The translations under genes were made by a program, and so were the position numbers. The notes beneath the pieces were generated by a model, which had not been told where the DNA came from, did not search any database, and was given only the letters and a program-made list of their open reading frames with translations. This document shows, piece by piece, positions 3,434 to 31,414 of a stretch of DNA of 32,000 nucleotides. The stretch comes from Candidatus Saccharimonadota bacterium. GTDB lineage: Bacteria > Patescibacteriota > Gracilibacteria > BD1-5 > UBA6164. Position 1 is the first letter of the stretch. Each line of letters starts with the position of its first letter. The stretch spans positions 1,050,001 through 1,082,000 of the forward strand of contig OZ245768.1 in the NCBI GenBank assembly GCA_965227835.1, given 5' to 3'.

Positions 3434-4541
3434 CTATTTTTTGTTAAATTATAGCCATTTTTATATATAATTTAGGATTTTAGACGCAATCCACCTAAGG
3501 AAACTAATCTAAACTATTGGGACTTCCTCTAAAACAACTAATCTTTTGAGATTAAAAGATATAGCTTCCATAAATGCAGTAAACTGATTTTTTACTACAG
3601 ACTTATACCTCACTCTATGATTCATTTTTGAAAATACCCTCTCATAAGGAGATCTAAGTTTAGAATAAAACTTATCTTTATCCTTGTTCTTATCTTTCAT
3701 ATTATTTTTCTTTATTGCACATAGATGTAATCACTTCTTTTTTGTTGATATTACAGCCGGTCAAATACAATATCACTTATCAGCATATACTGCTCATGAA
3801 CTTGGTAATACATGCTTCATTCACTTTGCATCTGTTACATTAGCTTGAGTTATAGCTATCTTGTTTATCATTCAAGATTGCATATCAACACTAGTATGTT
3901 TTTTATATCCATACCAAAATTTATTTTTTCATTTAGATCAAATTTTAGCTTCCTTATCATTAGCAACTTTTGGAAGAGTTTCATTATTCATTTTTTCATA
4001 TCATTCTTTTATTCATTTATCTCTTTCTTCCCATAAATTAGCTTTAGTAACTAAATGAGAAGCATCTACAAATGTAAACACTTCACTCATATACCCCTTA
4101 TTTGATAATTGATTTTTTAAATCTTCAAATATCTTTGATAGTTCATTTGTTCATATCTTTTTTCTTGCTCTTGAGAATATACTATAATCTGGAGTTTTAT
4201 CTGTTAATTTAAATCAGCAAAACCATTTACCAGCTAGATTTTCTGCAAGATATTTCTCTAACTCTCTATCTGATAAATCTTCCATAAACTGGATTAGTAA
4301 ACATAGAAATAATTTTTTTACTCAATATCATACATGAGTTTTTCATAGATCTATATTTTTTAGTATTTTATTTACTCAATCAAAGTTCCACAATTTCTTA
4401 AATTTACGATATTGATGATTTTCTGGAATTAGCTCGTTTAGGATAACAAAACTTATTTGATTTGATTCTCACATAGGTATTTTCTTAGAATATAATTACT
4501 ATCTAATTATATCTCTTTTTTCTCTTTTTAATAGTCAAAGT
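3434..4541 (-). mobile_element. IS5-family insertion sequence; ends not determined, so the interval is the maximal intergenic-bounded span
   Basis: Single DDE transposase gene between two intact unrelated genes. Only a weak AT-rich inverted match was seen (about 3463-3478 versus 4501-4514), so the boundaries are uncertain. Confidence 0.45.
3509..4474 (-). CDS. IS5/IS4-superfamily DDE transposase, 321 aa
   Basis: ATG 4474-4472, TAG 3511-3509. N-terminal InsH/DUF772-like LCLLIQFMEDLSDRELEKYLAENLAGKWFCGF..TPDYSIFSRARKKIG. DDE signatures VDASHL, AVYADKGY and RSPYERVFSKMN..RVRYKS. About 17 of about 20 Gly codons are TGA. Confidence 0.85.
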
Positions 4542-5695: not shown

Positions 5696-8600
5696 TTAAT
5701 TGTATGATTCTTTTTTTGATATATCAAAAAATCTCTCAAAAAAATTATTGAGTTTATCGATAACTGATTCTTTTTTTTGTGTTCTTGCATTGTCTTTTGA
5801 AAAACGGGAAATTGGTGGTAGGATTTCTGCTATTTGTGTTCATGTTTTTTGTATGTATCCATCTCTGAAAGCATTTTCTATGAAAGTATAGGTTTTTTCT
5901 TGATCAAGGTTTTCACTTTTGATGATTTTTTCTAGTTCTTCTCTTTTCTTTTCTTCTACAAATTTCATCCAATCTTCATCAACGGATGAATACATATCAA
6001 GTGACTCAATAAACTGATCTATCAGATCTTTTTTATTACGAAGCTCAATACTTGCATTGATTGCTTTGTTAATATCAATTAAAATTTCTTTATCTTTGGT
6101 ATTGTTTAGATGATATTTTTTTATGAGCTCAATAATATAATCAATATTAATTTCTATTTGTTTTATGAGTTCCATTTCAAAAACGAGATCATCGTTTATA
6201 TTTTCTTTTTCCCCTTTTTCTCATTTTCTAAATTGAGTATAAAGGTCTATGTATAAACCATGATAGTCTTGCAAATTTCTTTCCGTTAAAATTTGTTTGT
6301 CATGAAACTCATCAAATGTTTTTAAAATATTGAGAAGTTTTAAGACTCAACTATAGAGTTTCACGAATTCTTTTTGTTTGCTTTCTGAGATTATTGGTTC
6401 TCAGAGTGGGAATTGGTGTTTTAATTCGGATATTAATTTTTTGTATCATTTGATTTCTTTCTCTTCATCCATATATCCGTTGTAGTAATCTTCAAAATCT
6501 TTTAAAAGCACCATACCACTTGCATTTTTATCACCAAAAAGAGAAATAGCATCGTCTGTAGCTTTTTCTAGTTTTCTAAAACATATGACATTTCCAAAGG
6601 TTTTGATACTGTTTAGTATACGATTTGTTCTTGAAAAAGCTTGAATAAGTCCATGGTGTTTTAGGTTTTTGTCTACCCATAGGGTATTGAGAGTTTTTGC
6701 ATCAAATCAAGTTAAAAACATATTTACGACTATAAGTATGTCTATTTCTCTATCTTTTACCCTCTGACTGACATCTTTATAATAATTTTGAAATTTATCT
6801 GAGCTGGTATCATAAGATGTGCCAAACATTTCGTTGTAATCTCAAATTGCACTTTCTAAAAAGTCTCTGGATGTCTTGTCTAGGTTACTTGTGTCTTCTA
6901 GATTTTCAGATGTAGTACCATCTAATTCTTCTTCATTTGTAGCATAGCTAAATATGGTAGCTATTTTCAATTTTTTATCACTTGGAAGTCAATCCATTTG
7001 TTTTTTAAACTCTTCATAGTAGATCTTTGCCATTGAGATAGAAGAAACTGCAAATAGAGAGTTGAATCCTGCGAGTCTTTTTTCATCGAGTTTGTAAAAA
7101 CTGTTTCTTTTGGTTTTTTGATCAAAGTGTTCGAGGATGTATGCAACAATATTTGAAATTCTTTTGCTTGAAGATAGAGCTTTTTCTCTGTCAATATCTG
7201 TAATAGATTTGTCTTCTATATTTTCTTGTTTCTTAAATGTAGAGATATAGTCGAGTTTAAATGGTAGCACATTTTTATCAGCAATAGCATCAACAATAGT
7301 GTATGTGTGAAGTTTTTCTCAAAATGCTTGTTTTGTAGTTTTTAGGTCTAGGTGTTTTCAGGATGATGAGTTTATAGCAAATATGGGTGTTCAGGTAAAA
7401 CCAAAGAGATAGTACTTTTTAAATGCTTCGGTAATTGATTTATGCATATCACCAAATTGCGAGCGATGGCATTCATCAAATATCAATACGATTTCTCCAT
7501 CAAATATAGAGTGTCATTTGTTTTTTTTGATAAATGTATCGAGTTTTTGAATCGTTGTGATGATAATTTTTGCTTTTGGATTTTCTAATTGTTTTTGGAG
7601 CTTAGCCGTACTCGTATTACTATTCGCTGCTCATTTTTCAAATTTCTCATATTCTTTCATGGTTTGATAATCCAAGTCTTTTCTATCAACTACGAATAAT
7701 ACTTTTTTTATATGTGGTAGTTTACTGGCTATTTGTGCTGTTTTGAAACTTGTAAGTGTTTTTCATGAACCTGTCGTATGCCATATATATCAGCCTGCTT
7801 CTATGCTCCCATATTTTTTATGGTTTGAGCTTGTTTGTATTTTTTCAATTATTTTTTCGGTGGCTATGATTTGGTATGGTCTCATCACTAAGAGTTGTCT
7901 TTGGGAGTCAAAGACACAGTATTTGGTCAGGGTTTTTAAGAGTGTGTTTTTAGCAAAAAATGTTTTGGTGAAATCAACTAGATCAGTAATTGGTTTGTTT
8001 GTATAATCAGCCCACCAGCTGGTAAACTCAAAACTGTTACTTGTTTTTTTTGATTTTACGGATTGTTTTTTTGTTTGTTCTTTTACATGTGAGTATCGAG
8101 TTGTATTGCTATAATATTTTGTGTGTGTTCCGTTTGAGATGACAAATAGTTGGATGTATTCAAAGAGTCCACTATCTGCCCAAAAGCTTTCTCTTGAATA
8201 TCTGTTTATTTGATTAAATGCTTCTCTTATGGCTACTCATCTTCTTTTGAGCTCTACATGTACTAGCGGGAATCCATTTACGAGTATTGTTACATCATAA
8301 CGGTTTGCTCTTGTTCATGTATCTGTTTTGTATTGGTTTATGACTTGTAGGTGGTTTTTGTGGATGTCTTTTTTATCTAGCAAGTAGATATTTTTAGTTT
8401 CTCAGTTATCACGAGTTAAGATTTTTATGTAGTCTTCTTGGATTGTGGCTGTTTTGTCTTCTATGTTTTGGTTTGGGTTTGATATTTCGGTTTTGAAAAA
8501 GGTGTTCCATTCATTGTCACTAAAAGTGTAGTTGTTGAGTTTTTCTAGGTTGTTTTTTAGGTTTTTTACCAAATCATCATTGTTACTAATATTTATATAT

Positions 8601-8752
8601 TGGTATTCTTGGGACTCTAGTTGTTTTATAAACTCTTTTTCAAGTTCATCTTCGCTTTGATAGTTTTCTGCTTTTTTTGCAGATGGTGTGTATTTTGATA
8701 ATATGGTTGGTTGAGTTTTTGGAGTGTTTGGGTTTATATTTTCGTTTGTCAT
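5696..8752 (-). CDS. hsdR: type I restriction enzyme R subunit, 1018 aa
   Basis: ATG 8752-8750, 14 nt after the hsdS stop. TAA 5698-5696. Motif I TTGSGKT (Gly = TGA 7763-7765), motif [13 protein letters not shown]-terminus [14 protein letters not shown]...[13 protein letters not shown] typical of HsdR. Track fragments 8402-8809, 6989-7270 and 5840-6175 share one frame. Confidence 0.95.
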
Positions 8753-8765
8753 GATGATGTATAAT

Positions 8766-10139
8766 TTAGTAATATTTATAAGCAATTGTATAGTTGGGGA
8801 GTCTGGCAATAATTCCGTATTTTACGGCTTTTTCTATTTTTTTTGATAGTCTATATCTTTTTGATTTTCCTTGGTATTTTAGTGGTACTCCCATTGGGAC
8901 AGTTGGAGCATTATTGTCGGGAGTGTAGTTTGAATTTTCTGAGTTTTTACTTTCAGGGGGATTGATATTTTTAAAACTCAAAAGCTTTTCTCTATAGTAC
9001 TCATATTGTTTTCTTCTGGCTTCTATTTCAGCTGGGAGACCTATGGATATATCGTTTACGAGGGCATCAAATGTATCAAGTATTTTTACTATCTCCTGCT
9101 GTCTTTCTAAATCAGGTTTTCAGTTTTTGTATGGGATAGGCATAGTAAAACTCGAATACTGCTTAGCATTAATGTTTGGTTGTGATCATGTACTCTTATT
9201 TTTTTCTACAAATGTATTATAATAAGTAGTCTTAGTATAGTGATATACAAAACTAGATAATACTTGAGTGTTATCTGCAATGAAACGAATCAAATAACCA
9301 GCGAATATTGATTTTCAATAACTGCTAACATACCTGCATGTTTTTCATACGGTAGCACCACTACGGGCAAATAGTATATCTCATTGGTTTAAAAGATATT
9401 TATCTTCATAATAGCTAGGTGATTTTCCTTTATTATTCAACAATCCATCATCTGATATATCTGTTATTCTAACATACCTAACATCCCCATCAAATTCTAC
9501 TGCAGATGCTCAAGATCAATACTCTAGAGGTTTCACAGTAAGACTTCACAATTCCTTCCACTCAACCTCCTCATCTTCAAAACTCAACAACTCATCCCTA
9601 TAATACTCATACTGCTTCTTCCTCGCTTCTAGCTCCGCTTCTAGCTCCGCTTCTAGCTGGGTGAATGTATCAAGTATTTTGACTATTTCTTGTTGTACTG
9701 GAAGGGGTGGGATGGGGATTTGGATTTTTTCAACATCTTTTGTATAAACATGAGGAACCCCACCTCCCTTTTTGAGGTCGTGAATTTTATACTGAATACT
9801 CAAAAGAAAATGATAAATAAACTTGATAGATATATCACTTTTCGCTTTGATTGAGAATGCATCTGAAACATAAATTGGCTTATTCCAATACATCACAAAA
9901 CCAGCATAAGCACCAGAACCAGCAACCGTAATAGTTTCTCCGATTCTATTACTTTTATTATGGAAATAAGCAGGTTTTTGTCCTCAAGCAATAACAGGTA
10001 TTCCCCCAACAATAATATCTTTCTTTGTAATCGATTGACCTCTTTTTAGTTCACAAACCTCCCCAAACTCTTTAAACTCCACCCCATCTGGACACAGCTC
10101 TTCAATAAGTTTTTCAATACTTGTTTGATTGTTACTCAT
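8766..10139 (-). CDS. hsdS: type I restriction enzyme S (specificity) subunit, 457 aa, with an extra 68-aa C-terminal tail
   Basis: ATG 10139-10137, TAA 8768-8766. Two target-recognition halves, each followed by a conserved helix: [39 protein letters not shown] and [36 protein letters not shown]. 9 in-frame TGA. Confidence 0.9.
9624..9659. repeat. 12-bp tandem repeat x3 (cgcttctagctc) inside the hsdS central conserved region
   Basis: Units at 9624-9635, 9636-9647 and 9648-9659 (last base differs). Encodes (LEAE)x3 on the minus strand. Confidence 0.9.
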
Positions 10140-10159
10140 AGTTTTATTTTCTTATTTTT

Positions 10160-10636
10160 TTATGAACTTTTTTCTGTAAATCCTTCAAAGAATCCAAATA
10201 GCTTTTCACTACTACGAATATCTCGTATACGATCAAGAAGCTCTTTCCAATAATTCCTTCATCATATTCACTTCAATTTTTCATCATCCATCGTAAAACC
10301 TTTGATCATATATTTTTTGAGTCTTTGAGTTGCCCATTGACGGAAATGAGTTCATTGAAGAGAACGAACTCTATATCCTACGGATATTATAACATCGAGA
10401 TTATAATAATTTGTGAGTTTTTGCTGAAATTCGGAATTTCCGAATTTCTGTAATGTTTCACTTTCTAACAATTCTCATTCACTATAAATATTTTTTATAT
10501 GTTCATTTATTGTGGATTTTGCTTTACCAAAAAGAGCACTCATTTGATCTTGTGTTAGCCAGACTGTTTCGTTATCTAACTCCACCTGAAGTTTCAAATC
10601 TCAGTCATTTCATTTATATATAATTATTTCACTCAT
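10160..10636 (-). CDS. RhuM-family protein, N-terminal half only (158 aa; truncated relative to the roughly 330-aa family norm as I recall it)
   Basis: ATG 10636-10634, TAA 10162-10160. IIIYKGNDGDLKLQVELDNETVWLTQDQMSALFGK...YNLDVIISVGYRVRSLQGTHFRQWATQRLKKYMIKGFTMDDEKLKG..RIRDIRSSEK matches the RhuM N-terminal region. The ORF ends soon after DIRSSE. 7 of 13 Gly codons are TGA. Confidence 0.8.
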
Positions 10637-10654
10637 ACTCTTATTTTTAAAATA

Positions 10655-12904
10655 CTAAGCTCTTTCTATCTCTCCAACGTTCTGATTGCATAGGTCACAA
10701 ATTTTTGAATATAAATTTTTCAATTCATCTATTCCCATATCTAAAATAGGTTCATACATAAAAGAATTGAGATGAATATTCTCGGGAGTCATAATATTAA
10801 CGCTCTCCAACGTTCTGATTGCATTGGTGTGTAATTCGTATTCTTTAAATTCATCTTTATATCTTTGAAAGAGTTTTCCTGTTTGATTTCCAATAATTTC
10901 TTTTTTTTCAGTAACTTGCCACCACATGTATTGTTCTGCCTTTAGTCTAATTGCTATTGCGAGAATTATTTTATTTTCAAGATTAAAATCTGTGTCAGAA
11001 ATGTCATTGGCTATTTCTTCTATCTTAGAAAATACAATATCACTATCCCCAATAGATGAATCAAAATCATCTTTGTCTAAATACTGTTTATAAACTTTCT
11101 TTAAATGCCCAAAGTTTACTTTTTCTGTTCCAGACTTTTTGTGCAAAAGTTTCGTTAGCAGGTCAAAGTCCCCACTTGCCCAATCAAGCCCACTTACATT
11201 GTGATCAACTCCATATTCAATTAAGTTTCTCACAAAAGGGACAAGCGCAATTATATGCTTTATTGCATCTGCACTTGAATAATTTTTATCATAATATATG
11301 CCAACTGACATGCATTCTTTCCACGTTTTAAATGGTGCATTTTGGTATACCTCTTGGTTGAGTATTATCTCATCCTTATTTTTCATAGCATGAAGTCTGT
11401 TTTTTCGCTTAGTATTTAGTCGACTGCAAATTGTGCGATAAAAATCAAAGTTATGGGTGAAAATAATTGAATAAAAGCTTTCTTCTTTAGACAAATCACT
11501 TAGATATTCCACAATCGCATACTTATTCTTATAATCAAAAGAATCGGCAATATCGTCGATAATAAATAGTGTTTCTTTATCCTGTAATTTTCTAGATTTA
11601 ATTCCAAAAATGACATTCAAAAGATAAAAAGCTCTCTTTTCTCCTTGGCTTAGTATATTTTCAACCATATCTTGCCTATCAATAGTTTTTCCCATATATG
11701 AAAACTCTAGTGTTGGAGTTTCGTTTTTGAGCACAGCATCTGGTATATTTTTGATATGCATTTCAAATGGCATATCAACAAATCTGTTTTTGAACTCTGC
11801 AATGGCATCTTGCCATGCTCCTTTATTTTTATTTGCTTCATCTATTAGCTTTTTTAGCTCATCTTTTTTACTGTTGTAAGATTTAATTAATTCTTCAACT
11901 CCTGGCTGTATTTCCTTCAAAAAAGAATACCAAACAACTTTCCTAAACCCTTCGTAGTCCTTGAGTCGAGTGAGTAGTTCTGGATTTTTGTTAATAGCTA
12001 TTTTTAATCTTCGCAATTCCTTATTTCCGTCCAATGCTTTGTCTAATTTATCAAATGTCTTTTTTAAATCAGGGTTAGAAAAAATGCTTGAAATTTCTTT
12101 TTCGATAGTTTCTTCTAACTTACTTTGATTAGTAATTGATTCTCTATCATTTAATGATAGACCATGCCCAACAGAGAAATATTCTCCACCTTCTAGGCTC
12201 TTGTTAAGAGATTTTGCTTCAGCTGTTCCAAATGTGGTTCCATCCTTAGTGCTAAAAAAACTAGACTTTTCAATAAGGCTTTTATATTGCTGAAAATATT
12301 CTTCCAAAGTTTCCGAGTGATTTTCTAAAAATCCTTTAACTTTTCCATTTGCGTCAAAAACATCATTATATGCAAATTCAAATTTTTCTTTAGAGGCTTT
12401 TATTGATTCAATAATTCCCTCTAAAATCTCATAAATATTTTCCTTTTTTAGGTCAGCAAATGCTCCAAGAATTTCTTCTCCAAAATTTGAACTTCCAGAA
12501 ATCTTTTTTAGACCAGAGAAAGCCTTTGCTTTCTCGCCTTCAATCTCCTTATATATTTTTAAGTAGCGTTCTCTTTGGTTATCATCTGCTAGCAATATCA
12601 AAATATTTTTTTCAGAGTCTAGGACTTTTTCGTTATATGGCTCAATTACACAAAATTGCTTAGGATCTATTTTTGTGCCTTGTTCACTATCAATCAAAAA
12701 ATTATATTGAGATTCTAAATCAGGATTGACTTGATCACAGGGGTTTTTCCCATCAAATAAGGTTTTAGCTGTTTTAGCAAAAGACGTTTTCATCACCCCG
12801 TTTGGAGCATAGATCACAAAGGTTTTGCACTCTGAAAAATCAAACTCATGCTCAAGTTTTTTTATTCCATAACAATGCTCTAGTTCAATTTTTAACTTTT
12901 TCAC
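10655..12904 (-). CDS. PrrC/RloC-like ABC-type (AAA_13-like) ATPase with a long coiled-coil insert and a C-terminal putative anticodon-nuclease/HEPN-like region, 749 aa
   Basis: Uninterrupted ORF even under the standard code; GTG start 12904, TAG 10657-10655. Walker A-like VIYAPNGVMKTSF, ABC signature-like LSQGEKRAFY, Walker B LFIIDDIADSFD, H-loop IIFTHNFDFY. Then VPFVRNLIEY...LLHKKSG, an R-N-L-x-E...H pattern like the PrrC triad context as I recall it. Sits between hsdM and hsdS. Confidence 0.75.
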   Translation of the reverse strand: MKKLKIELEHCYGIKKLEHEFDFSECKTFVIYAPNGVMKTSFAKTAKTLFDGKNPCDQVNPDLESQYNFLIDSEQGTKIDPKQFCVIEPYNEKVLDSEKNILILLADDNQRERYLKIYKEIEGEKAKAFSGLKKISGSSNFGEEILGAFADLKKENIYEILEGIIESIKASKEKFEFAYNDVFDANGKVKGFLENHSETLEEYFQQYKSLIEKSSFFSTKDGTTFGTAEAKSLNKSLEGGEYFSVGHGLSLNDRESITNQSKLEETIEKEISSIFSNPDLKKTFDKLDKALDGNKELRRLKIAINKNPELLTRLKDYEGFRKVVWYSFLKEIQPGVEELIKSYNSKKDELKKLIDEANKNKGAWQDAIAEFKNRFVDMPFEMHIKNIPDAVLKNETPTLEFSYMGKTIDRQDMVENILSQGEKRAFYLLNVIFGIKSRKLQDKETLFIIDDIADSFDYKNKYAIVEYLSDLSKEESFYSIIFTHNFDFYRTICSRLNTKRKNRLHAMKNKDEIILNQEVYQNAPFKTWKECMSVGIYYDKNYSSADAIKHIIALVPFVRNLIEYGVDHNVSGLDWASGDFDLLTKLLHKKSGTEKVNFGHLKKVYKQYLDKDDFDSSIGDSDIVFSKIEEIANDISDTDFNLENKIILAIAIRLKAEQYMWWQVTEKKEIIGNQTGKLFQRYKDEFKEYELHTNAIRTLESVNIMTPENIHLNSFMYEPILDMGIDELKNLYSKICDLCNQNVGEIERA

Positions 12905-12922
12905 TTAGTTAGTAATAAAAAA

Positions 12923-13234
12923 TTAAGAATATATACCCCAATCTCTCGGTACATCCCAATCATATGGAGGATCCCAACTTATATAATCAGCTGGATCAAA
13001 ATGTTCATCTAAGATCTCTATATTTATAATATCTTCGCTCTTTGCTGACGAGGGATGCCCTGTTTCAATGTGCCAAGACCAATATCTCTTTATATTATCT
13101 TTAAATTTTTTTCAAACAGCATAATCATGGGGAATACATTTTCTTTCAATTATACCCTTTTCTTTGGAATTTCTTTCCATTAAGATAACTTTTTTTTCCT
13201 TGATTGCTTGTAAAAATTTGTCATGATTTGTCAT
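12923..13234 (-). CDS. hypothetical protein, 103 aa (orf103), between hsdM and the ATPase gene
   Basis: ATG 13234-13232, TAA 12925-12923, one in-frame TGA. Sequence MTNHDKFLQAIKEKKVILMERNSKEKGIIERKCIPHDYAVGKKFKDNIKRYWSWHIETGHP...WDVPRDWGIYS. Its stop is 18 nt upstream of the ATPase start. Confidence 0.6.
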
Positions 13235-13270
13235 AGTTTATTGTAGTTAAATTATAAAATATATACTAAA

Positions 13271-14818
13271 TTACTTAGCTTCTATCTCTGCAACTATCTC
13301 ATCTATTGATGACCTGAGAACACTCTGCTTTTCTACGATTTCTGCTATATCTTTATTGAGTTTTACTATATCAATAACTTCTCTTGTATCTTCCTGCTCC
13401 ACATAACTAGAAACAGCTATATTATAATCATTTGATTCTATTTCTGAGTTTTCTACAAGCCTAGAAATATAGTCTTTATCTTCCCTTTTTGTAAAACAAT
13501 CAAGTATATTTTTGATATTGTTTTCACTGAGTTTATTTTTGTTTCATCATCTAGTGCATTCATTTGTCGCATCAATAAAAAGAGTTTTGTTGTCTTTTTT
13601 AGATTTCTTTAAAACAATTATACAAGTAGCAATTGGGGTTCAGAAGAATAAATCAGATGGTAGCTGAATAACACTATCTATATAATTGTTATCAACTAAA
13701 TATTTTCTGATCTTTTGTTCTGCTCATCATCTATATAAAACTCATGGAAACTCTACTATAGCACAAGTCCCCGTCGTAGAAAGAAAAGACAACATATGCA
13801 TAGTAAAAGCTAGATCAGCCTTACTCTTTGGAGCAAGTACTCATGCTGGAGAAAAACGGGGATCATTTATCAAAATAGGACTAGAATCTCATTCCCATTT
13901 AATTGAATAAGGAGGGTTTGAAACAATTGCATCAAAAGGTCCACTATCCCAGTGATTGGGCTCTAAGAGAGTATCTCCATGAGTGATATCAAATTTCTCG
14001 TAGCTAATATCATGGAGAAACATATTGATACGACAAAGGTTGTAGGTAGTGAGATTTATTTCTTGTCAATAAAATCCCTGTCTTACATTTTCTTTTCATA
14101 GAACTTTAGCAAATTTTAGAAGTAAAGAACCAGAACCACAACACGGATCATATACTTTGTCTACTTCTTTTTTTCAAACAGTAGTTATTTTAGCCAAAAG
14201 TTCACTTACTTCTTGGGGAGTAAAAAACTCTCATCAAGATTTACCTGCATTTGAAGCATACATCGTCATGAGATACTCATAAGCATCTCCAAAAGCATCA
14301 ATACTATTATCAGCATAATTCCCTAGTTTTAAGTCTGCTATTGCTTCTAATAAGTCTGTAAGTTTTTTATTTCTTTGTTCTACTGTTGCACCGAGTTTAT
14401 TTGAGTTTACATCTAAATCATCAAATAATCCTTTTATATCATCTTCACTATCCGTCCCGCTTGCTGAAGCTTCTATATTTTTAAAAATTTGTGAAAGTGT
14501 TTCGTTTAAATTGGGATCATTTTTAGCTTTTTTCAAAACATTTACAAAAAGTTCACTTGGTAATATATAAAAACCTTTTTCTTTTACTGTTTCATCTCTT
14601 CAATATTCAGCATCATCATCAGATAGTTTTGCATAATCAAAATCAAACTCATCTTCGTCTTCATTTATGTATTTTATAAGATTTTCACTTATAAAACGAT
14701 AAAAAAGCATCCCTAAAACATATTGTTTAAAATCCCAACCATCAACACTTCCTCTAAGTTGGTTTGCTATCTGCCAAATAGATTTATGCAGCTCTGCTCT
14801 TTCTTGTTCTTTTGTCAT
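13271..14818 (-). CDS. hsdM: type I restriction enzyme M subunit (N6-adenine DNA methyltransferase), 515 aa
   Basis: ATG 14818-14816, TAA 13273-13271. HsdM N-terminal domain [36 protein letters not shown], AdoMet motif [12 protein letters not shown], catalytic [13 protein letters not shown]. About 13 in-frame TGA. Track fragments 14600-14818 and 14234-14536 are in the same frame. Confidence 0.95.
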
Positions 14819-15015
14819 ATACCTTTATTTTAGAAATTTATAAAACTTTTTAGTCTATCCTTAATATAAAAATAATGAAAAAAAAGTCTACTTGAAAATA
14901 GAATTTTAGGAACTCTGAAAGATTCACATCTAAAAAATAATCCCTATTGAAAATAATAAAAAATACATTAAATTGTAAACATAAATTTATATATTTTATA
15001 ATTTAAGAAATATTT

Positions 15016-16065: not shown

Positions 16066-16138
16066 TTTGAGAGAGCGATAAGAATTTGGAATATATAGTT
16101 TTGTGTTATATGGAATGCAAAGGCAAACTAGAAAAAAT

Positions 16139-16170
16139 TCCCCAGTTTACACTGGGGAGTTTTCTTTTTT
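16139..16170 (+). terminator. intrinsic terminator downstream of tas
   Basis: Stem tccccagt/actgggga (16139-16146 / 16151-16158), loop ttac, then a T-rich tract gttttctttttt. Confidence 0.6.
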
Positions 16171-16280
16171 CAAAAAAACAAATTTCCTACAAAAGCAAAG
16201 AGCTAAAGCTCTCTGCCAGAAAAATCAAACTAAATATAAAAATTAGAGATATACTAAATTTGGGGTAACTTTTAATAAAA

Positions 16281-16340
16281 TCTATTTTCTATCTCTGTTC
16301 TACTCCCCTCTCCTACAAAGGAGAGGGGCTGGGGGTGAGG
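16281..16340. repeat. G/C-rich hairpin repeat family, copy A (3' of the 16368-17522 gene)
   Basis: tctattttctatctctgttctactCCCCTCTCCtacaaaGGAGAGGGGctgggggtgagg. 9-bp stem 16305-16313 / 16320-16328. Related copies at 20404-20487, 23216-23341, 27061-27202 and 31415-31580. Confidence 0.85.
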
Positions 16341-16367
16341 ATTATAAAAAAAACATCAATCCCCCTT

Positions 16368-17522
16368 CTAATAATTACCCATAGAATAATCAAAAAATCA
16401 TGTATCTTCATTATATTCATATATTATTCAATAATCTTCATATTGCTGATAATCTACAGGCAAATAATCAATATATTTCTCATCATACAAAACTTTGGCA
16501 CTACTTGCCGAAACTCAATCATTATCAAATTTATACTTCTCATTTGCATCTTCTACATAATACAAATTTAACTCACGAATAGCTTTATTTAAGAAATTGG
16601 AACACTGATTATCATTTTTAGGATCAAGATCTTTTTCTTCATCAAATTTACCAAAAATCTCATCTCTAGAATCACTAACATATTTTATCACAGAAGATGA
16701 AATTTTATCCTGCCTAAAAATTTGAAATCAAAGACTTTCTAATGTTTGACCATAAATACTACATACCTTATCTTCAGATTGATCAAGACTTTTTCACATA
16801 TTTAAAAACATCAAAAAAGATTTTTCTCTATCTCATCATTTTCATTTCATTATAGCAGCTAAAAGTTTAGCTCACTCTAGTCAGTCCTCATTGGCTGAAG
16901 CTATCTTGTAATAATCAGAAGATGTCTTTGGATCTTTTAAATGAAAATAATATATGTAGGCTAGATAATATGGAATTTCATAACTTCTACATGGATTTTT
17001 ATATTTATCTTGAGACCATATCTTCTGTAAATCATCTTGTTTTTTTATGAGTTCTATCTTTTGTAAATCGCAAAAGTTTTTTATTCATTTTAGTCAAATA
17101 CTTTCAGCTTGTTTTATATATTTTAATTGATTCTGACTATTTACATTTTCATATCTAGGATTGTAGTCTGGGAGTAACAACATTCACAATTTATAAGGTG
17201 CATCAAAATATGGGTTTAAATGTGTTGTAATATCAATTATTGAAAACAAGTATTTTTTATAAGCTGAACTTACTGCATTTCATCATATATATTGTATAGT
17301 TTCAAGCCATAACATATCAGCTCTTATATTCTCAAATCAAAAAGAACTAGCTTTGACAAATTCCTTTTTAGGGAGCTTTTCAGGATGATCTATGATTTTA
17401 CTTTTTATTTCTTTTAGCTGTATATAATTTGATTTATTGACCTCCAAAAAAAAATTGGACACAAAAAAAAGAAGTAAAAACAAAAAGAGTATTTTTGATA
17501 TTTTTCTAAAATTTTTGCTCAT
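16368..17522 (-). CDS. hypothetical secreted or membrane-anchored protein, 384 aa
   Basis: ATG 17522, TAG 16370-16368. Translated in full with TGA=Gly, with no internal TAA/TAG. N-terminal hydrophobic segment ILFLFLLLFFVSNFFL. No family recognised. Confidence 0.7.
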
Positions 17523-17543
17523 TTTTACAATCTTTGCTTGTAT

Positions 17544-18482: not shown

Positions 18483-18494
18483 ACAGCAAATCCC

Positions 18495-18533
18495 TAGGGC
18501 TATTGGTTTTAACCAATAGCCCTAAATTTTTTT
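18495..18533 (+). terminator. intrinsic terminator (12-bp perfect stem plus T-run) between convergent genes
   Basis: tagggctattgg (18495-18506) / ccaatagcccta (18513-18524), loop ttttaa, T-run 18527-18533. Confidence 0.8.
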
Positions 18534-18568: not shown

Positions 18569-19801
18569 TTAATTTTTAGATTTTTTGTAAGGGAAGGTAT
18601 CACTATATATACATCAACAATAATTTTGTCTGTATATATTGTGCTTCTTAGTGTATTCTACACTTCTCCCAAAACCTCCATTTTTCCTAAAAGCTATTTT
18701 TAAAAACTCAAGATTATCCTTCTCAATATTGGGATTATTCTCCTGCAAATTAGATATACTATATTTATCTCACAGTTTAAACATTTTTTCTAAATCTTTG
18801 TGAGGAGAAGTATTTAGTGTGGAAGTCCAGTATTTTATTCAAAGCTTTCTTGCTTCCAAAGCTGATCTTCTAAGTCTCATATCATAACATTTCTCACATT
18901 TTTCTCATCTTTCAGGAGTATGCTCTAAACCTTTTATTTCTTTAAAAAAATTAACTACATCATATTCTCATTTTATATATGATACTCCCTCAATTTTACA
19001 AACTTTCACAAACTCTTCATATCTTTTTTCATATTCTTTTTTTGGTTGTATGTTTGGATCATACCAAAAACAAACAACTTCAAATTTATCTTTTAAATCC
19101 ATTATAGGCACAGTAGCATCAGGTCAGCAACATATATGAAGTAATAGTTTTTCTTTTTTTTCTAAAGCTTCTTTCACAGGTTTATATGATAATCTATGAA
19201 TTCAAACTATATCTCTTTTATTAGATAAACTTTCTTTATGTTTTTTAGTTCAATATCATTTATGGTTTTCTATTCAAAGATTTGGGTATAGACTTGAATA
19301 TGTAGTTAGTAGCTTATCTCTAAATACTTTGGCAACAATTGAAGCTGCACTTATTTCTTTTATTTTGCTATCTCCAGATATTACATAGATAGGTTTTTTC
19401 TCTAATTCTTCAAATTCATAGTTATCATTTCAATCTATAAAAACTCAAGATATATATTCTGCTTGCCCATTTTCACTAAATTCTGGCTTTATTTTTCTCA
19501 ATAGTTCTACAAGTGATCTCCTCATAGCTTCTTTGTTAGCTTGTTTTACATTTATTTCGTCAATTAAGTAATTGTCTACAATTCAAACACCAAAAAAAAC
19601 TTTTGGATTTTTTAAACTAGACATTTTTATTATTTCTTTATATAGACTTTCTCTTTGAGTTTTTGATAGCTTTTTAGAATCATTTAATTTCTCCAAAAAA
19701 TCATTTTGTGGTAGATTTGATGGATTGAAGGCAAGACTACAAGCTACAATTCATCAAAGCCAAGGTCATCTTCATGCTTCATCTATTCATATTTTATACA
19801 T
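18569..19801 (-). CDS. fusion protein: RNase HII (N-terminal) + epoxyqueuosine reductase QueH/DUF208 (C-terminal), 410 aa
   Basis: ATG 19801-19799, TAA 18571-18569. N-terminal MYKIGIDEAGRGPWLGGIVA...DSKKLS...[22 protein letters not shown]...GYGT = RNase HII. C-terminal LLLHICCGPDATVP...[13 protein letters not shown]...[18 protein letters not shown]...STLNTSPHK...YRQNYCGCIYS = QueH. One continuous frame. Confidence 0.85.
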
Positions 19802-19865
19802 TGAAATTTTGTTATTTTTTAATAAGATTCAAATTGATTATAATAAACTAAAATATTTTTCCAAA

Positions 19866-20150: not shown

Positions 20151-20244
20151 ATTTTTAAAATTTTGAAAACCATATCAATAGGCAAAATTGAAATTTTTAG
20201 AAATATAAATACTATAAATACCTAATAATTTTTAATAAAAAAAT

Positions 20245-20892
20245 ATGAGATATATAATGTTTATAACTATTCTTAGTCTTTTTTTGTCCTCTTGTTATAA
20301 GCAAGAAAAGAAAGAGGTAGTTAATTTAAAAGAAAGTATAAATATAGAGATTTCAAAAGATTCACAGGAACTTTCTATAGAAAAATCTGAAAATAACTCG
20401 AAACCTAACCCTCTCAATACAGACCTCAACCTCTCCTTAGATGAGAGGGAACAGAACAAAGAGGGTATAACAGAGTGAGTAGAACAGTACTCATCTAAAC
20501 TTGATCAAACCTCAAATATAGCAAACTCTGATAAAATCAAAGCTGAAGAAATAGAATCTATAATCACAAATGAAGAAGAAAAGGAAATTATTAGTGAATT
20601 AGAAGAAGCTATTAATGATATATGAAATGGTAACTGAGAGAATGAGTTGAAAAAGATAAATGCTTTTTACAAAAATCCAAAAACACAGGTTGATATGATT
20701 ATAGAGTATAGTTTGGATGAAGAGGGTAAGATAGAAAAAATAAATGCAAATGCTACAACCTATGATCTAACTAAATTTGACGAAAACATACAAATTTTAG
20801 TTTGAAAAACTATTGATGAGGCAAAAGAAACATATATATCATGAGGTTCTCTTACTACAAAAGCTTTCAAAGAAGCTATAAAAGATTTATAA
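20245..20892 (+). CDS. lipoprotein with a C-terminal FMN-binding (FMN_bind-like) domain, 215 aa
   Basis: ATG 20245, TAA 20890-20892. Signal peptide plus lipobox ILSLFLSSC. C-terminus ...ILVGKTIDEAKETYISGGSLTTKAFKEAIKDL resembles the SGAT/S flavinylation motif of FMN_bind domains. ApbE gene is adjacent. Confidence 0.7.
20404..20487. repeat. G/C-rich hairpin repeat family, copy B (reverse orientation on the plus strand, inside the lipoprotein CDS)
   Basis: cctaaccctctc...cctcaaCCTCTCcttagatGAGAGGgaacagaacaaagagggtataacagagtgagtagaacag. In frame it encodes ..KPNPLNTDLNLSLDEREQNKEGITEGVEQ. Confidence 0.75.
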
Positions 20893-22937: not shown

Positions 22938-23849
22938 CTACCAATCTTTCTCCTCTCAACTTTCAAGTATAGAATTATCAAAAAATGGATTATCAAAAAA
23001 ACCATTAAAAAAATCTGTATTTTGATTAAAATCTTTGTTATAAAAGTTTCATATATTTCTTTGTTCTTGCTCCAAATCTCTAAGTTTCTCTTCCAAAGCA
23101 TTTTTCAAACCTTCATTCAATCTTTCATCTAAATTGTCATTTTCTTCAAATTTACTATCAGATGTGGGCTGTCCAGATTGTGATGAATCTTGTTCTTGAG
23201 AATTTCAAAATCCATCCTGTTCTCCTCCCCTCTCCTCTAAGGAGAGAGGTTGGGGGTTAGGTTCGTTTGGAGATAACTGGGGGTGAGGTTCCCCTGGAGA
23301 TGGGCTGGGAGTGAGGTCTGGTTGAGGGGACTGGGTGTTGGATTCATCCGAAGATGACTGGGTTTTTTCTTGAGAGTTTTGAGTATTATTTTGTGATTCA
23401 GAAGAATTAGAATTTTCATTTGAAGATGATTTAGATCATTCTTGACTAGAATTTTTTGAAGAAGAATTTTGTCTTTCTCTCAATTTCTCACTCACAAATT
23501 CTAAATTCTTGCTAGTTTCTAAATCAGATTTTAAAAGCAAAACATTTTGATAACTTTCTATAGACTTTTCTAAATCATAAGCTTTGTAGTAGGAATTTCA
23601 TAAATTATGAAGAGTTCTAAAATTTAGCTCTAAAGAGTTATCCTCCTCTAAAATTCAAGAAAAACTAGAAATAGCTTTTTCATATAATCCATCTTCGTAA
23701 TATCTATTTCATAGATTATACCAACCTTCTAAATTTTTTGATTTTTGGTAATTTCAAGAAACATTGTAAAAAAAGTTTGATATATTTGAATAATTTAAAA
23801 ATATGAAAAATAAAAAAATAACAAAAAAGTATATATTTATTCTTTTCAT
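22938..23849 (-). CDS. TPR-repeat membrane-anchored protein (BatC-like), 303 aa
   Basis: Translated in full: ATG 23849-23847, TAG 22940-22938. N-terminal TM, then TPR-like GWYNLGNRYYEDGLYEKAISSF...LHNLGNSYYKAYDLEKSIESYQNVL, a long S/N/Q/P-rich linker and an acidic C-terminus. Track ORFs 23237-23419 and 22871-23101 are in a different frame. Confidence 0.75.
23216..23341. repeat. G/C-rich hairpin repeat family, copy C (inside the TPR-protein CDS)
   Basis: cctgttctcctcccCTCTCCtctaaGGAGAGaggttgggggttagg..ggagataactgggggtgagg..ggagatgggctgggagtgagg..ttgaggggactgggtgttgg. In frame it encodes ..SPQPDLTPSPSPGEPHPQLSPNEPNPQPLSLEERGGEQDG. Confidence 0.8.
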
Positions 23850-24838
23850 TTCTTTATAAAGTTAAAAAATAAATAAAAAAGGAAGAAAAACATAGAAACT
23901 ATAGATAATATCCTTCAAATATCTAAGGCATTTTCTCAAATCTTTTTCTTTGTAGAATTTTTTTCTAGATTTCAAAAGCTTTTTTCTAATATGGAGTAAA
24001 TATCTTTTGAGCTAGCATTTAAATAATCAAAACCTAGAAAAGAAGAAATATCTTTCAATTTTTTCTCATTGAGTCTGGTAACTACGTATTCTCATTTATA
24101 CTTTTGATAAACCAAATTTCAAAAAATATCTCTGTCTAAAGGAATTCTAGAACCCTTTTTATTTCATACTCAAACTATAAGTCAGCTTATAGACTCACCT
24201 TTTAGTTTTTCTATAATGCTAAAATTATTTTCCTCATCTCATCAATCACTTATGAGTATTATTGCTTTGGGATTATCTTCATCTAGTTTAAATCTATTAT
24301 AAGCTAAAGATAAAGATTTTTCTATCTCACTTCACTGACCTCATATATTTTTATAATCTATGGAGTCTAGGAAATTTAATAGTATTTCATGATAATCTGT
24401 AAGTGGAAGTAAAGAATTTGCATCTCAAGCAAAAATTACAAGACCATATCTATTTTTTGGATTTTTTTCTACATAACTAGCTATAATATTTTTTGAAAAA
24501 CTAAGCCTTGAAACAAGCATATTTCAATCTTTATAGTCAAGAGAATTCATTGATTTACTTACATCCAAGATAAAAATAATATCTATTCATTGAGGAGTAT
24601 AATCAAGTTTTTTTTGATTAATTTTTATTCAAAAGAAATAAAAAAGCAGTACAAACAAACTCAAAAATAAAAATATATATTTAATGTAAAAATATTTACC
24701 CTGATCAAACAAAAGAAAATATTTCTTCTTGAGTCTTTCTCTTTTGAAATAAAATAAGGCTAAAAAAAAGATACAAGATAAACTTATAGCAAGAAATAAT
24801 CCAAAAGAAGAGGGAAAATTTGAACTTTCTATTATCAT
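23837..24838 (-). CDS. von Willebrand factor A domain membrane protein (BatB-like), 333 aa
   Basis: ATG 24838, TAA 23839-23837. Translated in full. Two N-terminal TM segments, MIDAS IDIIFILDVSKSM, ILISDGGDEE. Overlaps the next start by 13 nt because TGA 23848-23846 is read as Gly. Confidence 0.85.
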
Positions 24839-25848: not shown

Positions 25849-26820
25849 TTATTTTAATTTCTGTTTCAATTGGGTTAAGATTTTAGTTCTTTCTTCTATT
25901 GAATCAGATAAATTGTTGTATTCTGGAAAATATATTTTTTCATAGATGTTTAGTAAGTCTTTTTTTATTTTTTTATTTTCTTTTAGCTCTGAAAAGCTCT
26001 TGTTTGAAAGTCAATTTTCTATTTTTTCATCTAAATATTCTCTAAAAATTTGAGATAGCTTTGAATAAAATATTTCTTTTTTAGATTCTAAATACTTCTT
26101 TTCAAAATAGTTTATCATAGATAAATAATTTACAGGTTTTTTTGGAGTTTTTATTTCTAAAGATTTTTGAGTATATAAATATTTATTTAAAATTTTTTGA
26201 TATAGTAAGTATAAAAGTAAAGCAAGTAAAGATATAAATAAAAAATAAATAGACTCTTTGCTTACAATTTTTCAATACATATTTCATTTCAATCAATATA
26301 TATCTTTCATTTCTTCTCAATCTATTCAAAAAATAGTTCTTGAAGTAATATCCTTTTTTTTAAGTCATAAATCTACATCATCTAAATTTTGTTCTTCATC
26401 TTGAAGGTTTCAACTATTTATATTGTCAGTATTTTTCCTAAGCATAATACTATCTCCTGAAACTTTTATTTTTAAAATTTCTGATTTAATTTCACTATCT
26501 CTTAAGTATGCAGGTCAGATAGTATATTCTCCTGACTTAAGAGCTTGTAAATAAAAGCTAAATTTTTGGCTAATATTTTTTTTTGAATTGATAATACTTA
26601 TATTCTGGGATTGTCTTTTTGATACAATATTGAAGTTTGAAAGTCAATCCACAAGTATTTCTCATCCTTGATCTGTATTTCATAATATATCTATATCCAA
26701 TATTATATTTTCATCAATATTGTAGTTTTGTTTGTCTGTTGATAAATTTATTTCCAGAGAAGAGAAACAATTGTTTATAGATAAATATAAAAAGATAAAT
26801 GTGATAAATATTTTTTTCAT
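25849..26820 (-). CDS. BatD-like N-terminal domain + TM + DUF4381-like C-terminal region, 323 aa
   Basis: ATG 26820-26818, TAA 25851-25849. Translated in full. Signal-like MKKIFITFIFLYLSINNCF, mid TM IYFLFISLLALLLYLLY, C-terminal ..FYSKLSQIFREYLDEKI..SFSEL. Domain names are assigned from memory of the Bat operon architecture. Confidence 0.65.
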
Positions 26821-26958
26821 ATTTTTATTTTTTGGATAAAGAAAAATTAGGTAAGAAATAAAGATTGATAGAGAAGTAAATATTTGGTAAGGGATAAAAG
26901 TCAAACAAGGGGTCAAAAACGAGCAAGGGGTTAAGGATTAGCGAGAATTTAAGTATGA

Positions 26959-27060: not shown

Positions 27061-27202
27061 CCTCTGTTTTCTCCATTTTGTTTTCTCCATTTTGTTCTCT
27101 CCTCTCTGTTCTCTATCTCTTCTGTTCTATTCCCTATGTTCTTTTCCCTCTCCTTTAAGGAGAGGGTTAGGGTGAAGGTAAGTTGGAGAGGGCTAAGGCA
27201 AG
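27061..27202. repeat. G/C-rich hairpin repeat family, copy D (inside the Bat operon spacer)
   Basis: Pyrimidine-rich CTGTTCT-type units 27061-27145, hairpin CCCTCTCC (27146-27153) tttaa GGAGAGGG (27159-27166), then ttagggtgaaggt..ggagagggctaaggcaag. Confidence 0.85.
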
Positions 27203-27262: not shown

Positions 27263-28062
27263 CTAAGTTTTCTTATATTCTGACAAAAATTTATAAGTTT
27301 TGAGAAACAAATCATCTCTATTATCTATATGCAAATATTTTGTGTTGTGTTTTTTTAAATTCATATCCAAGAATTTAATTCTATCCTTTCTAAATTCCCT
27401 ATATTTGGTCTTCTTTTTTTTAAAAAAGAAAGAAAAAATATTTTGAGAACTAAATTCAAAATCATCTTCACTCAAAAAATTTTCAAAATGGTCAAATATA
27501 TTGATATAAACAACCTCATTTTTTATATTCAAGTATTTAATTTCATCTATATTTGGTTCCAAACTATCAGATAAAAAGAAAATTAAAGTATTTTTTAAAT
27601 TTAGTTTTTTTAAATCTTTGTTTGAAATAAATTCTTTGCCGTCAAGATTTTTAAGTGTTTTTATAATATTTTTTTCATCTTTTCTAAAATCTAAAAAACA
27701 GTTGTTTATGAATACTCAAATCTCATATCAATTAGAAATAGATGAATATGAAAGCAGGAAAAAAAATTGTTTTAATATATCTTTTTTATTTTTATACTCA
27801 CTTCAAAAATCAAGGCTAGGGGAGTTTTCTATTACAAAAAGAATTTTTAAATTTTTTTCTGCTTCATAATTTTTGATAAAAACATCTCCTAGTTTAGCTG
27901 TTGTTTTCCAGTCTATACTTTTTATACTATCTCAAGGTTCATATTCTCTTATAGAATCAAACTCTATTCAGCTTCATTTCAAAAAACTAGAAAAAGCAGA
28001 TAAAAAATCTGATGTAATCTTTTTTTTTGTCTGAATTTCAAGTAATTTATAATTTTTATACA
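27263..28062 (-). CDS. DUF58 protein (Bat operon); conserved N-terminus and body are in different frames (apparent -1 shift in an A8 run)
   Basis: Body frame is open 28045-27263 (TAG 27265-27263): ..KKITSDFLSAFSSFLKGSGIEFDSIREYEPGDSIKSIDWKTTAKLGDVFIKNYEAE. The first canonical start in that frame is TTG 27982. ATG 28062 ([14 protein letters not shown]) lies in the +1 frame and joins only by slippage at the plus-strand T8 run 28020-28027. Confidence 0.7.
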
Positions 28063-29011
28063 TAGCTTAAGTTATTTTCACATTTTCTAATACATCTTTT
28101 ATTATTTCTTCTGGTTTTATTTCATCTGCTATAGCTTCATAGTTTAAAACCAGTCTATGAGCCAAGGTTGGGATTGCCATTTCTTTGATATCTTCAGGAG
28201 TTACAAAATCTCTAGAGTTTAGAAATGCCAGAGTTTTTGATGCTTTTAAAAGTGCTATACTTCATCTAGGAGAAACTCAATAAGAAAGGTATTTATGATT
28301 ATTTCTTGTTTGAGTTATAATATTTGTTATATAGTCTATAATATTTTCAGAAACATGTAGCTTTTGTATTTCTTTTTTTATGTTATCAAGCTCTCTTTTA
28401 GAAAGTATTTTTTTTGTTTTAGAGTTTTCTATATTTTCTATATTTTTTAAAATAGTTATTTCATCTTGTTTACTGGGGTATCAAACATAACTTTTCATCA
28501 TAAACCTATCTAGTTCTGCTTCTGGAAGTTTGTATGTTCCTGATTGCTCTATAGGGTTTTGAGTTGCCAAAACTATAAAAGGTTCTTGTATTTTAAAACT
28601 TGTTTCTCAAATAGTTACTTGTTTTTCTGCCATAGCTTCAAGTAGGGCTGATTGAACTTTACTTGGAGCTCTGTTTATTTCATCTGCTAGAAGAAAATTA
28701 GTAAATATTGGTCATTTTTTTGTTTTAAATTCTTGGGAGTTTGGACTGTATATTTCTGTCCCTATAAGGTCACTTGGTAGTAGATCAGGAGTAAATTGTA
28801 TTCTTGAAAAATCCATGTTTAATGTTTTGCTAAGTGTGTCTGCTGTAAGGGTTTTTGCTACACCTGGTACCCCTTCGATTAATATATGTCATCCAGAAAA
28901 AAGTGATATTATTATATCTCTTATAAGATTTTCTTGTCATATAATTTTTTTATGTATTTCAGAGGTTATTTCTAGTATTAAGCCATTTTTTTCTTGTATT
29001 TCTTTTTTCAT
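28055..29011 (-). CDS. moxR: MoxR-family AAA+ ATPase; literal ORF 318 aa, but the conserved C-terminus is in the +1 frame and ends at 28066
   Basis: ATG 29011-29009, checked codon by codon. [96 protein letters not shown]. The literal frame ends at TAA 28057-28055. The +1 frame from 28140 reads [27 protein letters not shown] (28068-28066). Confidence 0.85.
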
Positions 29012-31281: not shown

Positions 31282-31414
31282 AAATCTGTTGTATAACTTA
31301 TTGAGAAATATATCACCATTTTATGAGAAATTATAATATTTTTATAAAAATAACAACTATCACTATGCCTAATATTTAATATTTTTTAATTATATAATTC
31401 CTATCTTGTATATA

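Follow-up and report, generated by a model that had tools for sequence, protein, structure and literature searches.

BoxC/PIT/TMECO-type triplex repeats in a Gracilibacteria chromosome and the association of the repeat family with DUF559 endonuclease genes

BoxC/PIT repeats were described in E. coli in the 1990s (Bachellier et al.; Hoyne/Maher 2000). The BoxC repeat, rediscovered as the PIT element, was renamed TM or TMECO in a later survey (Holder et al., 2015; PMC4666352). According to this survey, the consensus is CCCTCNCCC-N3-6-GGGNGAGGG-N3-GGGNGAGGG, and the motif, as an isolated strand, forms a stable triplex in vitro (CD, NMR). The E. coli copies are always intergenic, without strand bias and without promoter or terminator activity; the loci carrying them are more variable than controls, a sign of local genomic variability, and copy numbers differ hugely between close strains (PMC4666352). 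The present study deals with five G/C-rich repeat copies, named A to E, in a stretch of 32,000 nucleotides (the window) of a Gracilibacteria chromosome (assembly GCA_965227835.1, contig OZ245768.1, positions 1,050,001 to 1,082,000). The five loci are copies of the BoxC/PIT/TM intrastrand-triplex repeat, two of them intact (A and D) and three decayed (B, C and E). A repeat family known for about 30 years is thereby found in a new lineage, with copies inside open reading frames (ORFs) and with local arrays. These copies are probably selfish or neutral DNA elements, copied within the genome and expanded locally. In other genomes, inverted pairs of the motif are associated with genes of the DUF559 family; this association is strong and specific, and includes insertions of whole cassettes.

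The window repeat and BoxC/PIT/TMECO share the same three-block class II purine-motif architecture, with nearly the same sequence, and both are multi-copy, dispersed and G/C-rich, with solo copies as well as inverted pairs. Copy 17 of the E. coli TMECO set, CCCTCTCCC-TGA-GGGAGAGGG-TTA-GGGTGAGGGG, is almost superimposable on window copy D, CCCTCTCC-TTTAA-GGAGAGGG-TTA-GGGTGAAGG. Copies A and D are each off the consensus at three of its 24 specified positions, each stem having one of these at its end. For copies B, C and E the mismatches number 7, 5 and 9, respectively, and the same consensus found no match in shuffles at four mismatches or fewer. A and D belong to the triplex-motif family and, judging from these alignments, appear to be near variants rather than exact members of the E. 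coli subtype. Several differences are also seen. The window stems are one position shorter, the host is a bacterium of the Candidate Phyla Radiation (CPR) with 25% GC and genetic code 25, the lead-in forms a 14-nt array peculiar to this genome, and the third block has been amplified in tandem. PMC4666352 does not describe a link to DUF559 genes. Finally, in-frame copies within ORFs occur in the window and in other phyla; they are new with respect to the E. coli description and contradict its picture of an element that is always intergenic.

Two other systems bear comparison. The REP/REPIN-RAYT system (PMC3116915) also consists of short structured repeats that stay away from promoters and occur singly or as inverted pairs, and there too one small enzyme gene is flanked by inverted repeat copies. 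The flanked gene is however a Y1 HUH transposase in that system and a PD-(D/E)XK, Vsr-like DUF559 gene here; moreover, REPs are extragenic and have no mirror third block. Rickettsia palindromic elements (PMC10969869) resemble the present repeat by their in-frame insertions in unrelated, often essential genes, where they are tolerated as surface loops or linkers. They differ from it in being 100-150 bp long, restricted to Rickettsia and not known to have a triplex-type third block, whereas the window element measures about 35 nt and is pan-bacterial. The sequences of the two are not known to be related. The mobile G/C clusters of AT-rich yeast mitochondrial DNA and, reportedly, the small dispersed repeats of cyanobacteria are likewise G/C-rich mini-elements that contrast with AT-rich surroundings and can lie within genes, in other hosts and with other sequences; both are mentioned as leads only.

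Anatomy of the five copies

The copies, with a nearby hairpin that is not part of the repeat, are arranged as follows.

16134-16163, both strands: terminator-like hairpin outside the repeat, flanked by the convergent aldo/keto reductase gene and ORF 16368-17543.
16295-16341, plus strand: copy A, intact, 27 nt downstream of where minus-strand ORF 16368-17543 stops, and in the same frame as that ORF; CTGTTCT 16295-16301, pyrimidine stem CCCCTCTCCT 16305-16314, loop 16315-16318, purine stem AGGAGAGGGG 16319-16328, loop CTG, third (reverse-Hoogsteen-type) stem GGGGTGAGGA 16332-16341.
20402-20487, minus strand: copy B, in reverse orientation and decayed, lying within plus-strand ORF 20239-20892 and in its frame; third-block-like GAGAGGGTTAGG (minus strand) 20402-20416, hairpin remnant 20430-20449, 14-nt lead-in array 20453-20487.
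23217-23341, plus strand: copy C, partly decayed, in frame inside minus-strand TPR/BatC-like ORF 22938-23861; CTGTTCT 23217-23223, CCCCTCTCC 23227-23235, GGAGAGAGG 23241-23249, GGGGGTTAGG 23252-23261.
27062-27199, plus strand: copy D, intact, between the DUF58 (27263-28066) and BatD (25849-26937) genes; 14-nt lead-in array 27062-27149 (up to 4.6 copies), CCCTCTCC 27146-27153, loop TTTAA, GGAGAGGG 27159-27166, TTA, GGGTGAAG 27170-27177, extra GGAGAGGGCTAAGGC unit 27185-27199.
31419-31579, plus strand: copy E, decayed, in intergenic DNA on the upstream side of minus-strand ORF 30367-31320; lead-in array 31419-31447, degenerate hairpin CCTTTCTCC...GGAGAGGG 31441-31465, GGAGAGGGTTAGGGT 31458-31472, more units resembling the purine stem or third block at 31479-31493, 31521-31535 and 31569-31579.

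An earlier note on this DNA had described five copies of a hairpin repeat standing out as G/C islands in AT-rich DNA. All five sites indeed hold the motifs described, far above chance, and the copies form a genuine dispersed family. With dinucleotide-preserving or simple shuffles of the window as background, CCTCTCC-N4-8-GGAGAGG was observed twice for 0.00 expected, and CCCTCTCC at one mismatch or fewer 19 times for 4.75 expected; the latter matches cluster at the five sites and no shuffle reached 19. The corresponding figures are 6 against 0.12 for GGAGAGGGTTAGGGT at three mismatches or fewer and 15 against 6.1 for YTRGGGTGAGG-like units. Six of the eight occurrences of CTGTTCT in the window fall in copies, and an unbiased repeat search independently recovered the pair formed by B and D (51 nt, 80% complementary).

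Each copy follows the same plan, in which a pyrimidine arm, a loop and a complementary purine arm are followed, after 2-3 nt, by a G-rich block. This third block mirrors the purine (G/A) arm, T standing opposite A, so that a single strand could fold into a hairpin plus a third strand. The class II rule demands three stems of at least 7 nt, with at most one mismatch and short loops: one of pyrimidines, one of purines that is its Watson-Crick complement, and a third that runs antiparallel to the purine stem and matches it as G·G, A·A or T·A. By this rule, copy A passes (10-nt stems, no mismatch, 10 of 10 triplets), as does copy D, whose 8-nt stems contain one mismatch, and B, C and E fail; shuffled windows contain 0.02 such motifs on average. 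Folding as DNA gives -11.6 kcal/mol (z -3.0) for the hairpin of copy A and -9.4 kcal/mol (z -2.0) for that of copy D, the only two strong ones. The hairpin that the earlier note took as the common architecture is therefore intact in A and D and decayed in the three others, which are placed in the family because of their shared flanking units and sequence. Similarly, the CTGTTCT lead-in of that note is present in the copies, where it turns out to be part of a 14-nt tandem unit (CTCTGTTCTCTCCT) repeated 2 to 4.6 times at B, D and E. A CTGTTCT-containing lead-in is common to all five window copies and is not present at the motifs of other genomes, which argues for intragenomic copying.

The mirror relation was also examined beyond the window. 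Among 182 asymmetric arms of the family, the mirror rule for the third block gave 50 perfect matches and a direct-repeat rule gave 3. A comparison of own versus other purine stems over 9-nt stretches was uninformative, since the commonest stem is mirror-symmetric and the registers overlap; cross-variant covariation, at 38.5% versus 20.5%, is only suggestive. A mirror third block fits the geometry of a DNA triplex and has no place in a simple RNA hairpin; Holder et al. state that the purine-motif triplex cannot arise in RNA (PMC4666352). Readings of the G-runs as a G-quadruplex, a telomere-like TTAGGG repeat or a DNA-uptake sequence were dropped, as the three-block mirror geometry accounts for these runs; nuclear magnetic resonance had argued against a quadruplex (Holder et al., PMC4666352).

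The surroundings of the copies differ from one to the next. Copy A sits between convergent genes, in the 3' untranslated region of the minus-strand gene and upstream of the hairpin at 16134-16163 that would serve that gene; because of this separate hairpin, copy A is not needed as a terminator. As had been noted earlier, A lies in frame after a TAG, that of minus-strand ORF 16368-17543, past which 31 further codons remain open through the copy (16272-16367, minus strand; KGDGCFFYNPHPQPLSFVGEGSRTEIENRFY*). This may be a coincidence, given a frame chance of about one in three and an element free of stops, or it could be the trace of a former in-frame insertion truncated by a nonsense mutation. 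Copy B encodes KPNPLNTDLNLSLDEREQNKEG in the linker that follows the signal peptide of its host, a lipoprotein-like protein without Pfam match. In copy C, the third block is amplified into a 27-nt (9-codon) tandem array at 23251-23317, with 2.4 copies, which fades by about 23341. Copy E has stop codons in every frame.

Relatives of the host inform on the history of two of these sites. The DUF58 and BatD genes abut in three of them (L001, L002 and L003) and lie 325-442 nt apart in the window, around copy D. In the orthologues of L001 and L002, the linker corresponding to the copy C stretch is gapped or unalignable. Set against these relatives, the genes as aligned show copies C and D to be insertions.

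Spread across phyla and association with DUF559 genes

A 21-nt core of the motif was found at 120 loci or more in many phyla, for about two expected by chance (calculated by simple arithmetic, with one genome per species). The core matches listed come from Chloroflexota, Cyanobacteria, Bacteroidota, Planctomycetota, Proteobacteria, Armatimonadota and CPR lineages, and almost all of them have kept the left arm, which was not part of the query. The Gracilibacteria relative L001, whose MoxR is 71% identical to that of the window, carries CCCCTCTCC-tccaaa-GGAGAGGGGCTGGGGGTGAGG inside its EPSP synthase gene (L001 2565-2605), where the 13 motif-encoded residues align to a gap in a homologue of solved structure. 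In a Nomurabacteria locus (L018 5258-5303), the motif is in frame inside Dus and 4 residues likewise face a gap in a homologue of solved structure; in Peribacteria (L116 4306-4351), it is in frame inside the adenylation domain of LigA, just before KxDG, with 8 residues facing a gap. Outside the CPR, in-ORF motifs are found in MnmE (L069), RarA (L088) and carbamoyl-phosphate synthase (L119), as well as in an FAD oxidase, an MmeI enzyme and a STAND NTPase; the hosts include Pseudanabaena for MnmE and Prevotella for carbamoyl-phosphate synthase. In-ORF motifs in conserved housekeeping genes are also listed for L050, L051 and L072.

In all these cases, the in-ORF motifs encode short insertions, first rich in Pro, Ser and Thr, then in Gly, Glu and Arg, placed in loops or linkers. 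In the window, the element would be translated in its in-frame linker positions because it is without stop codons. Across hosts, all three reading frames are used (TSPPTPLL, LTPNPSP, PHPQPLS) and both orientations occur; since the three frames are used, the conserved entity is the DNA and not a peptide. Annotators of CPR genomes should expect to meet the motif within genes: the loops and linkers of enzymes such as DNA ligase, Dus or EPSP synthase gain 4-13 residues or more from it.

In several loci, inverted motif copies enclose a DUF559 domain. In the RecQ of L001, such a domain lies between two inverted copies (L001 7587-8022). In the leucyl-tRNA synthetase (LeuRS) of a Chitinophagaceae member (L032 6924-7408), a DUF559 segment is found between CCTCACCCCTAACCCCTCTCC-aaa-GGAGAGGGG and CCCCTCTCC-ttg-GGAGAGGGGTTGGGGGTGAGG; by comparison with a solved structure, 158 residues (474 nt) are inserted in place of about 6, with motif-encoded peptides at both ends. 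In L031 (434-894), a motif-DUF559-motif unit stands alone and has start and stop codons of its own. The motif-bracketed segment looks like a very small selfish cassette.

All five DUF559 homologues at the loci selected for their motif adjoin a motif. An independent sample was composed of 80 metagenomic loci (L124-L203) chosen by DUF559 similarity alone, with an alignment of three sequences as query; these queries being themselves motif-associated, the figures from this sample apply to that clade of DUF559. A formal motif lies within 150 nt of the DUF559 gene in 57 of the 80 loci, and on both sides in 30. Motif density reaches 4.5 per kb at the DUF559 flanks for a background of 0.13 per kb. When genes with full flanks are considered, a motif is found within 150 nt of 56 of 74 DUF559 genes versus 1 of 56 other genes of the same loci (p=2e-19). 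Of 33 flanking pairs, which span 415-615 bp, 27 are inverted (p=0.0003); the inverted pairs fall into two polarity classes, 18 having the third block inside and 9 having it outside. The two members of a pair have the same purine stem in 39% of cases, as compared with 15.5% for motifs of other loci.

E. coli K-12 provides a further example. Its DUF559 gene ycjD (L204, NC_000913.3 1,351,160-1,351,830) ends in a degenerate motif. After this motif come a partial duplicate of the ycjD 3' end and then TMECO copy 9, a proximity for which the chance is about 0.4%. The gene is present in 3,378 of 5,426 complete E. coli genomes (62%), and in strains lacking it, homology fades just before the motif (TMECO copy 9). 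In E. coli O157:H7, the interval holds other genes and no clean "empty site" for ycjD was seen, which leaves the breakpoint position, immediately ahead of TMECO copy 9, as the informative feature.

The function and the spread of BoxC/PIT motifs have been open questions since the 1990s. A hypothesis combining an enzyme and its substrate is now concrete because motif pairs bracket DUF559, in-frame units are found in LeuRS and RecQ, and ycjD adjoins TMECO copy 9. No paper linking DUF559 to repeats or mobility was found in a literature search of incomplete coverage. The DUF559 link, which is the novel part of this work, is drawn from association.

Origin of the repeat and rival explanations

For the window, the following course of events may be proposed. 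The repeat would have been copied within the genome as a unit, together with its genome-specific 14-nt extension containing CTGTTCT. Local slippage would then have expanded the copies into the 14-nt lead-in arrays and the 27-nt in-frame array. Copies would persist only where they are harmless, that is in 3' untranslated regions, in intergenic spacers, or in frame in disordered protein linkers. As to the means of copying, we infer a DUF559 cassette acting on DNA. Most likely, the motifs would be the terminal inverted repeats, and the gene-less derivatives, of such a cassette. In its general form, the idea that BoxC/PIT motifs are the terminal inverted repeats of a pan-bacterial DUF559 mobile cassette of about 0.42-0.62 kb, accompanied by gene-less derivatives resembling MITEs (miniature transposable elements with inverted repeats), is offered tentatively and may well turn out otherwise. 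In such a scheme, the DUF559 (PD-(D/E)XK, Vsr-like) endonuclease would recognise the hairpin- or triplex-forming end, and the whole unit could insert in frame in essential genes such as LeuRS and RecQ; solo and paired motifs, five in the window and 23 in E. coli K-12, would be progeny or scars of the cassette. That DUF559 genes home into pre-existing inverted motif pairs fits equally well, and either way one selfish system would be at work. If true, a role would be assigned to DUF559, a large domain family of unknown function.

Several observations weigh against a selfish or neutral element spread by such a cassette. No transposition event of the repeat has been observed, and no target-site duplication is evident at the ends of the LeuRS or L031 cassettes. 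The window has no DUF559 homologue, and the DUF559 sample was drawn with queries already associated with the motif. Only two of the five window copies pass the class II rule with at most one mismatch. Holder et al. detected the triplex neither in duplex DNA nor in vivo, and they reported no connection to mobile elements (PMC4666352). Lastly, the five window copies are alike in their orientation relative to local transcription (two-sided p=0.06), a statistically weak regularity for which this reading does not account.

The earlier note stressed the common orientation of the copies relative to transcription and named RNA stability or processing and a ribosome decoy among its candidate roles. When TGA is read as a sense codon, the strand pattern that it gave is right, with four plus-oriented copies in minus-strand units and B in a plus-strand ORF. 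The copies were said to lie in transcription units; this is true as far as the strand is concerned, except that B and C lie within the coding sequence itself. The rule does not extend to the family, however. Among the 120 loci listed (L004-L123), with heuristic gene calls, in-ORF motifs are on the coding strand in 15 cases versus the template strand in 17, co-directional intergenic copies are divided 5 versus 12 (p=0.14), and the near-identical copy in the EPSP synthase gene of L001 has the opposite orientation to the window copies. A cis element acting in the RNA, with the sense hairpin serving mRNA stability or processing or as a Shine-Dalgarno/anti-Shine-Dalgarno decoy, is accordingly very improbable in spite of the common orientation in the window, of the AAGGAGAGG and complement carried by the hairpin, and of the excess of intergenic members at convergent (11) over divergent (1) gene ends (p=0.006, same loci), which would often place them in 3' untranslated regions. 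This excess means that family copies avoid promoters, as REP-type repeats do. The Shine-Dalgarno resemblance comes from the polypurine nature of the arm, and the GGAGG core is lost in the family variants GGGAGAAGGG and GGGGGGAG, which speaks against a ribosome decoy. Three of the five hairpins are decayed, and the third block, without a place in a simple RNA hairpin, nevertheless obeys the mirror rule of DNA. Searches with Rfam covariance models gave no match at gathering score in the window and only an unrelated tRNA and NsiR4 in 18 motif-bearing loci. Membership of a known annotated RNA family had been given in the earlier note as something that would refute it; in spirit this applies, since the family is known and named, BoxC/PIT/TMECO, although it is one of DNA repeats. 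An intrinsic terminator or attenuator formed by the G/C hairpin is scarcely credible. Copy A does lie between convergent genes, an arrangement that family members favour, but no T-run follows any copy, none of the five was called by a terminator scan, a separate bidirectional hairpin is present at 16134-16163, two copies are inside ORFs, and PIT elements have neither promoter nor terminator activity in E. coli. On the whole, the RNA, Shine-Dalgarno-decoy and terminator ideas are unsupported.

A DNA structure kept by the cell for its benefit, such as a site where replication or repair pauses, a hotspot of recombination or a source of local variability (the "adaptive instability" of Holder et al.), deserves more consideration while remaining unlikely. 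It would agree with the mirror geometry kept across sequence variants, with the higher variability of E. coli motif loci, with the position of ycjD and TMECO copy 9 at the edge of a presence/absence block, and with the slippage arrays at copies C, D and E. However, the failure to detect the triplex in double-stranded DNA or in vivo also counts here, hugely varying copy numbers in close strains are those expected of selfish DNA, the decay of three of the five copies argues against selection on each copy, and instability might equally be a side effect of a selfish structured repeat. As for a coding module conserved as protein, a Pro/Ser-rich then Glu/Arg/Gly-rich linker of which A, D and E would be remnants, hardly any weight can be given to it. 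B and C are translated in the same frame, and one frame, shared by all five copies, stays open across the hairpin; yet the composition of the element by itself keeps almost every frame free of stop codons, copy E has stops in all frames, other hosts are unrelated proteins that use three frames and both orientations, and it is the nucleotide sequence rather than the peptide that is conserved across phyla.

Returning to a mobile DNA element, the MITE/REP-like nature suggested earlier holds insofar as the repeat belongs to the REP/MITE-like class of short structured repeats; it is not a classical MITE derived from an insertion sequence. The IS5-type element of the window (3509-4495) was rejected as a parent, its AT-rich ends being unrelated to the repeat. 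No recurrent neighbour emerged from an all-versus-all BLAST of 385 neighbouring ORFs, where clusters had at most 2 members. Among 150 ORFs overlapping or adjoining the motif, only Pfam singletons were found, and no Y1 (RAYT-type, HUH) transposase. A reported link between such repeats and genes of four-helix-bundle (23S rRNA intervening sequence, IVS) or GxxExxY proteins is unsupported among the neighbouring ORFs.

Gene context of the window

The window genes are an ordinary chromosomal set of Gracilibacteria, at about 25% GC and with code 25, in which TGA encodes Gly. With translation table 11, almost no long ORF appears in the window, and a dense gene map is obtained with TGA as a sense codon. 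In the MoxR gene (28067-29017), the in-frame TGA codons align to Gly in 5 of 7 cases and to Trp in none of the 7 in the homologue 2r44, which assigns the code to table 25. In a public protein database, this MoxR has been translated with TGA as Trp, with 98% identity to the version with Gly. The named relatives closest to it belong to Candidatus Gracilibacteria, with identities of about 73% or below. The source contig, of 1,489,121 bp, is apparently a complete Gracilibacteria genome. Among the products encoded are a pilin-like protein, an aldo/keto reductase, an RNase HII-QueH fusion, ApbE and a Bat/MoxR operon. The fusion is a single minus-strand ORF (18569-19837) joining RNase HII (residues 4-208) to the epoxyqueuosine reductase QueH (residues 219-401). 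At 16134-16163 and 18493-18526 there are strong terminator-like hairpins that are bidirectional, a T-run being present on either strand.

The left part of the window is occupied by the following loci.

3509-4495, minus strand: IS5-type DDE transposase (DUF772 and DDE_Tnp_1), adjoining the type I restriction-modification locus.
5696-14824, minus strand: type I restriction-modification locus, with HsdR 5696-8821, HsdS 8766-10151 and HsdM 13271-14824.

Clear terminal inverted repeats of the IS5-type element were not found at its ends, which are AT-rich. Three extra ORFs interrupt the restriction-modification locus between HsdS and HsdM. One of them (10655-12904; 712-749 residues) has no Pfam match and no in-frame TGA, which is unusual for this genome. 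The hsdS gene also holds a 67-nt direct repeat (8967-9033 and 9573-9639, 75% identical), presumably the usual duplicated conserved region of S subunits.

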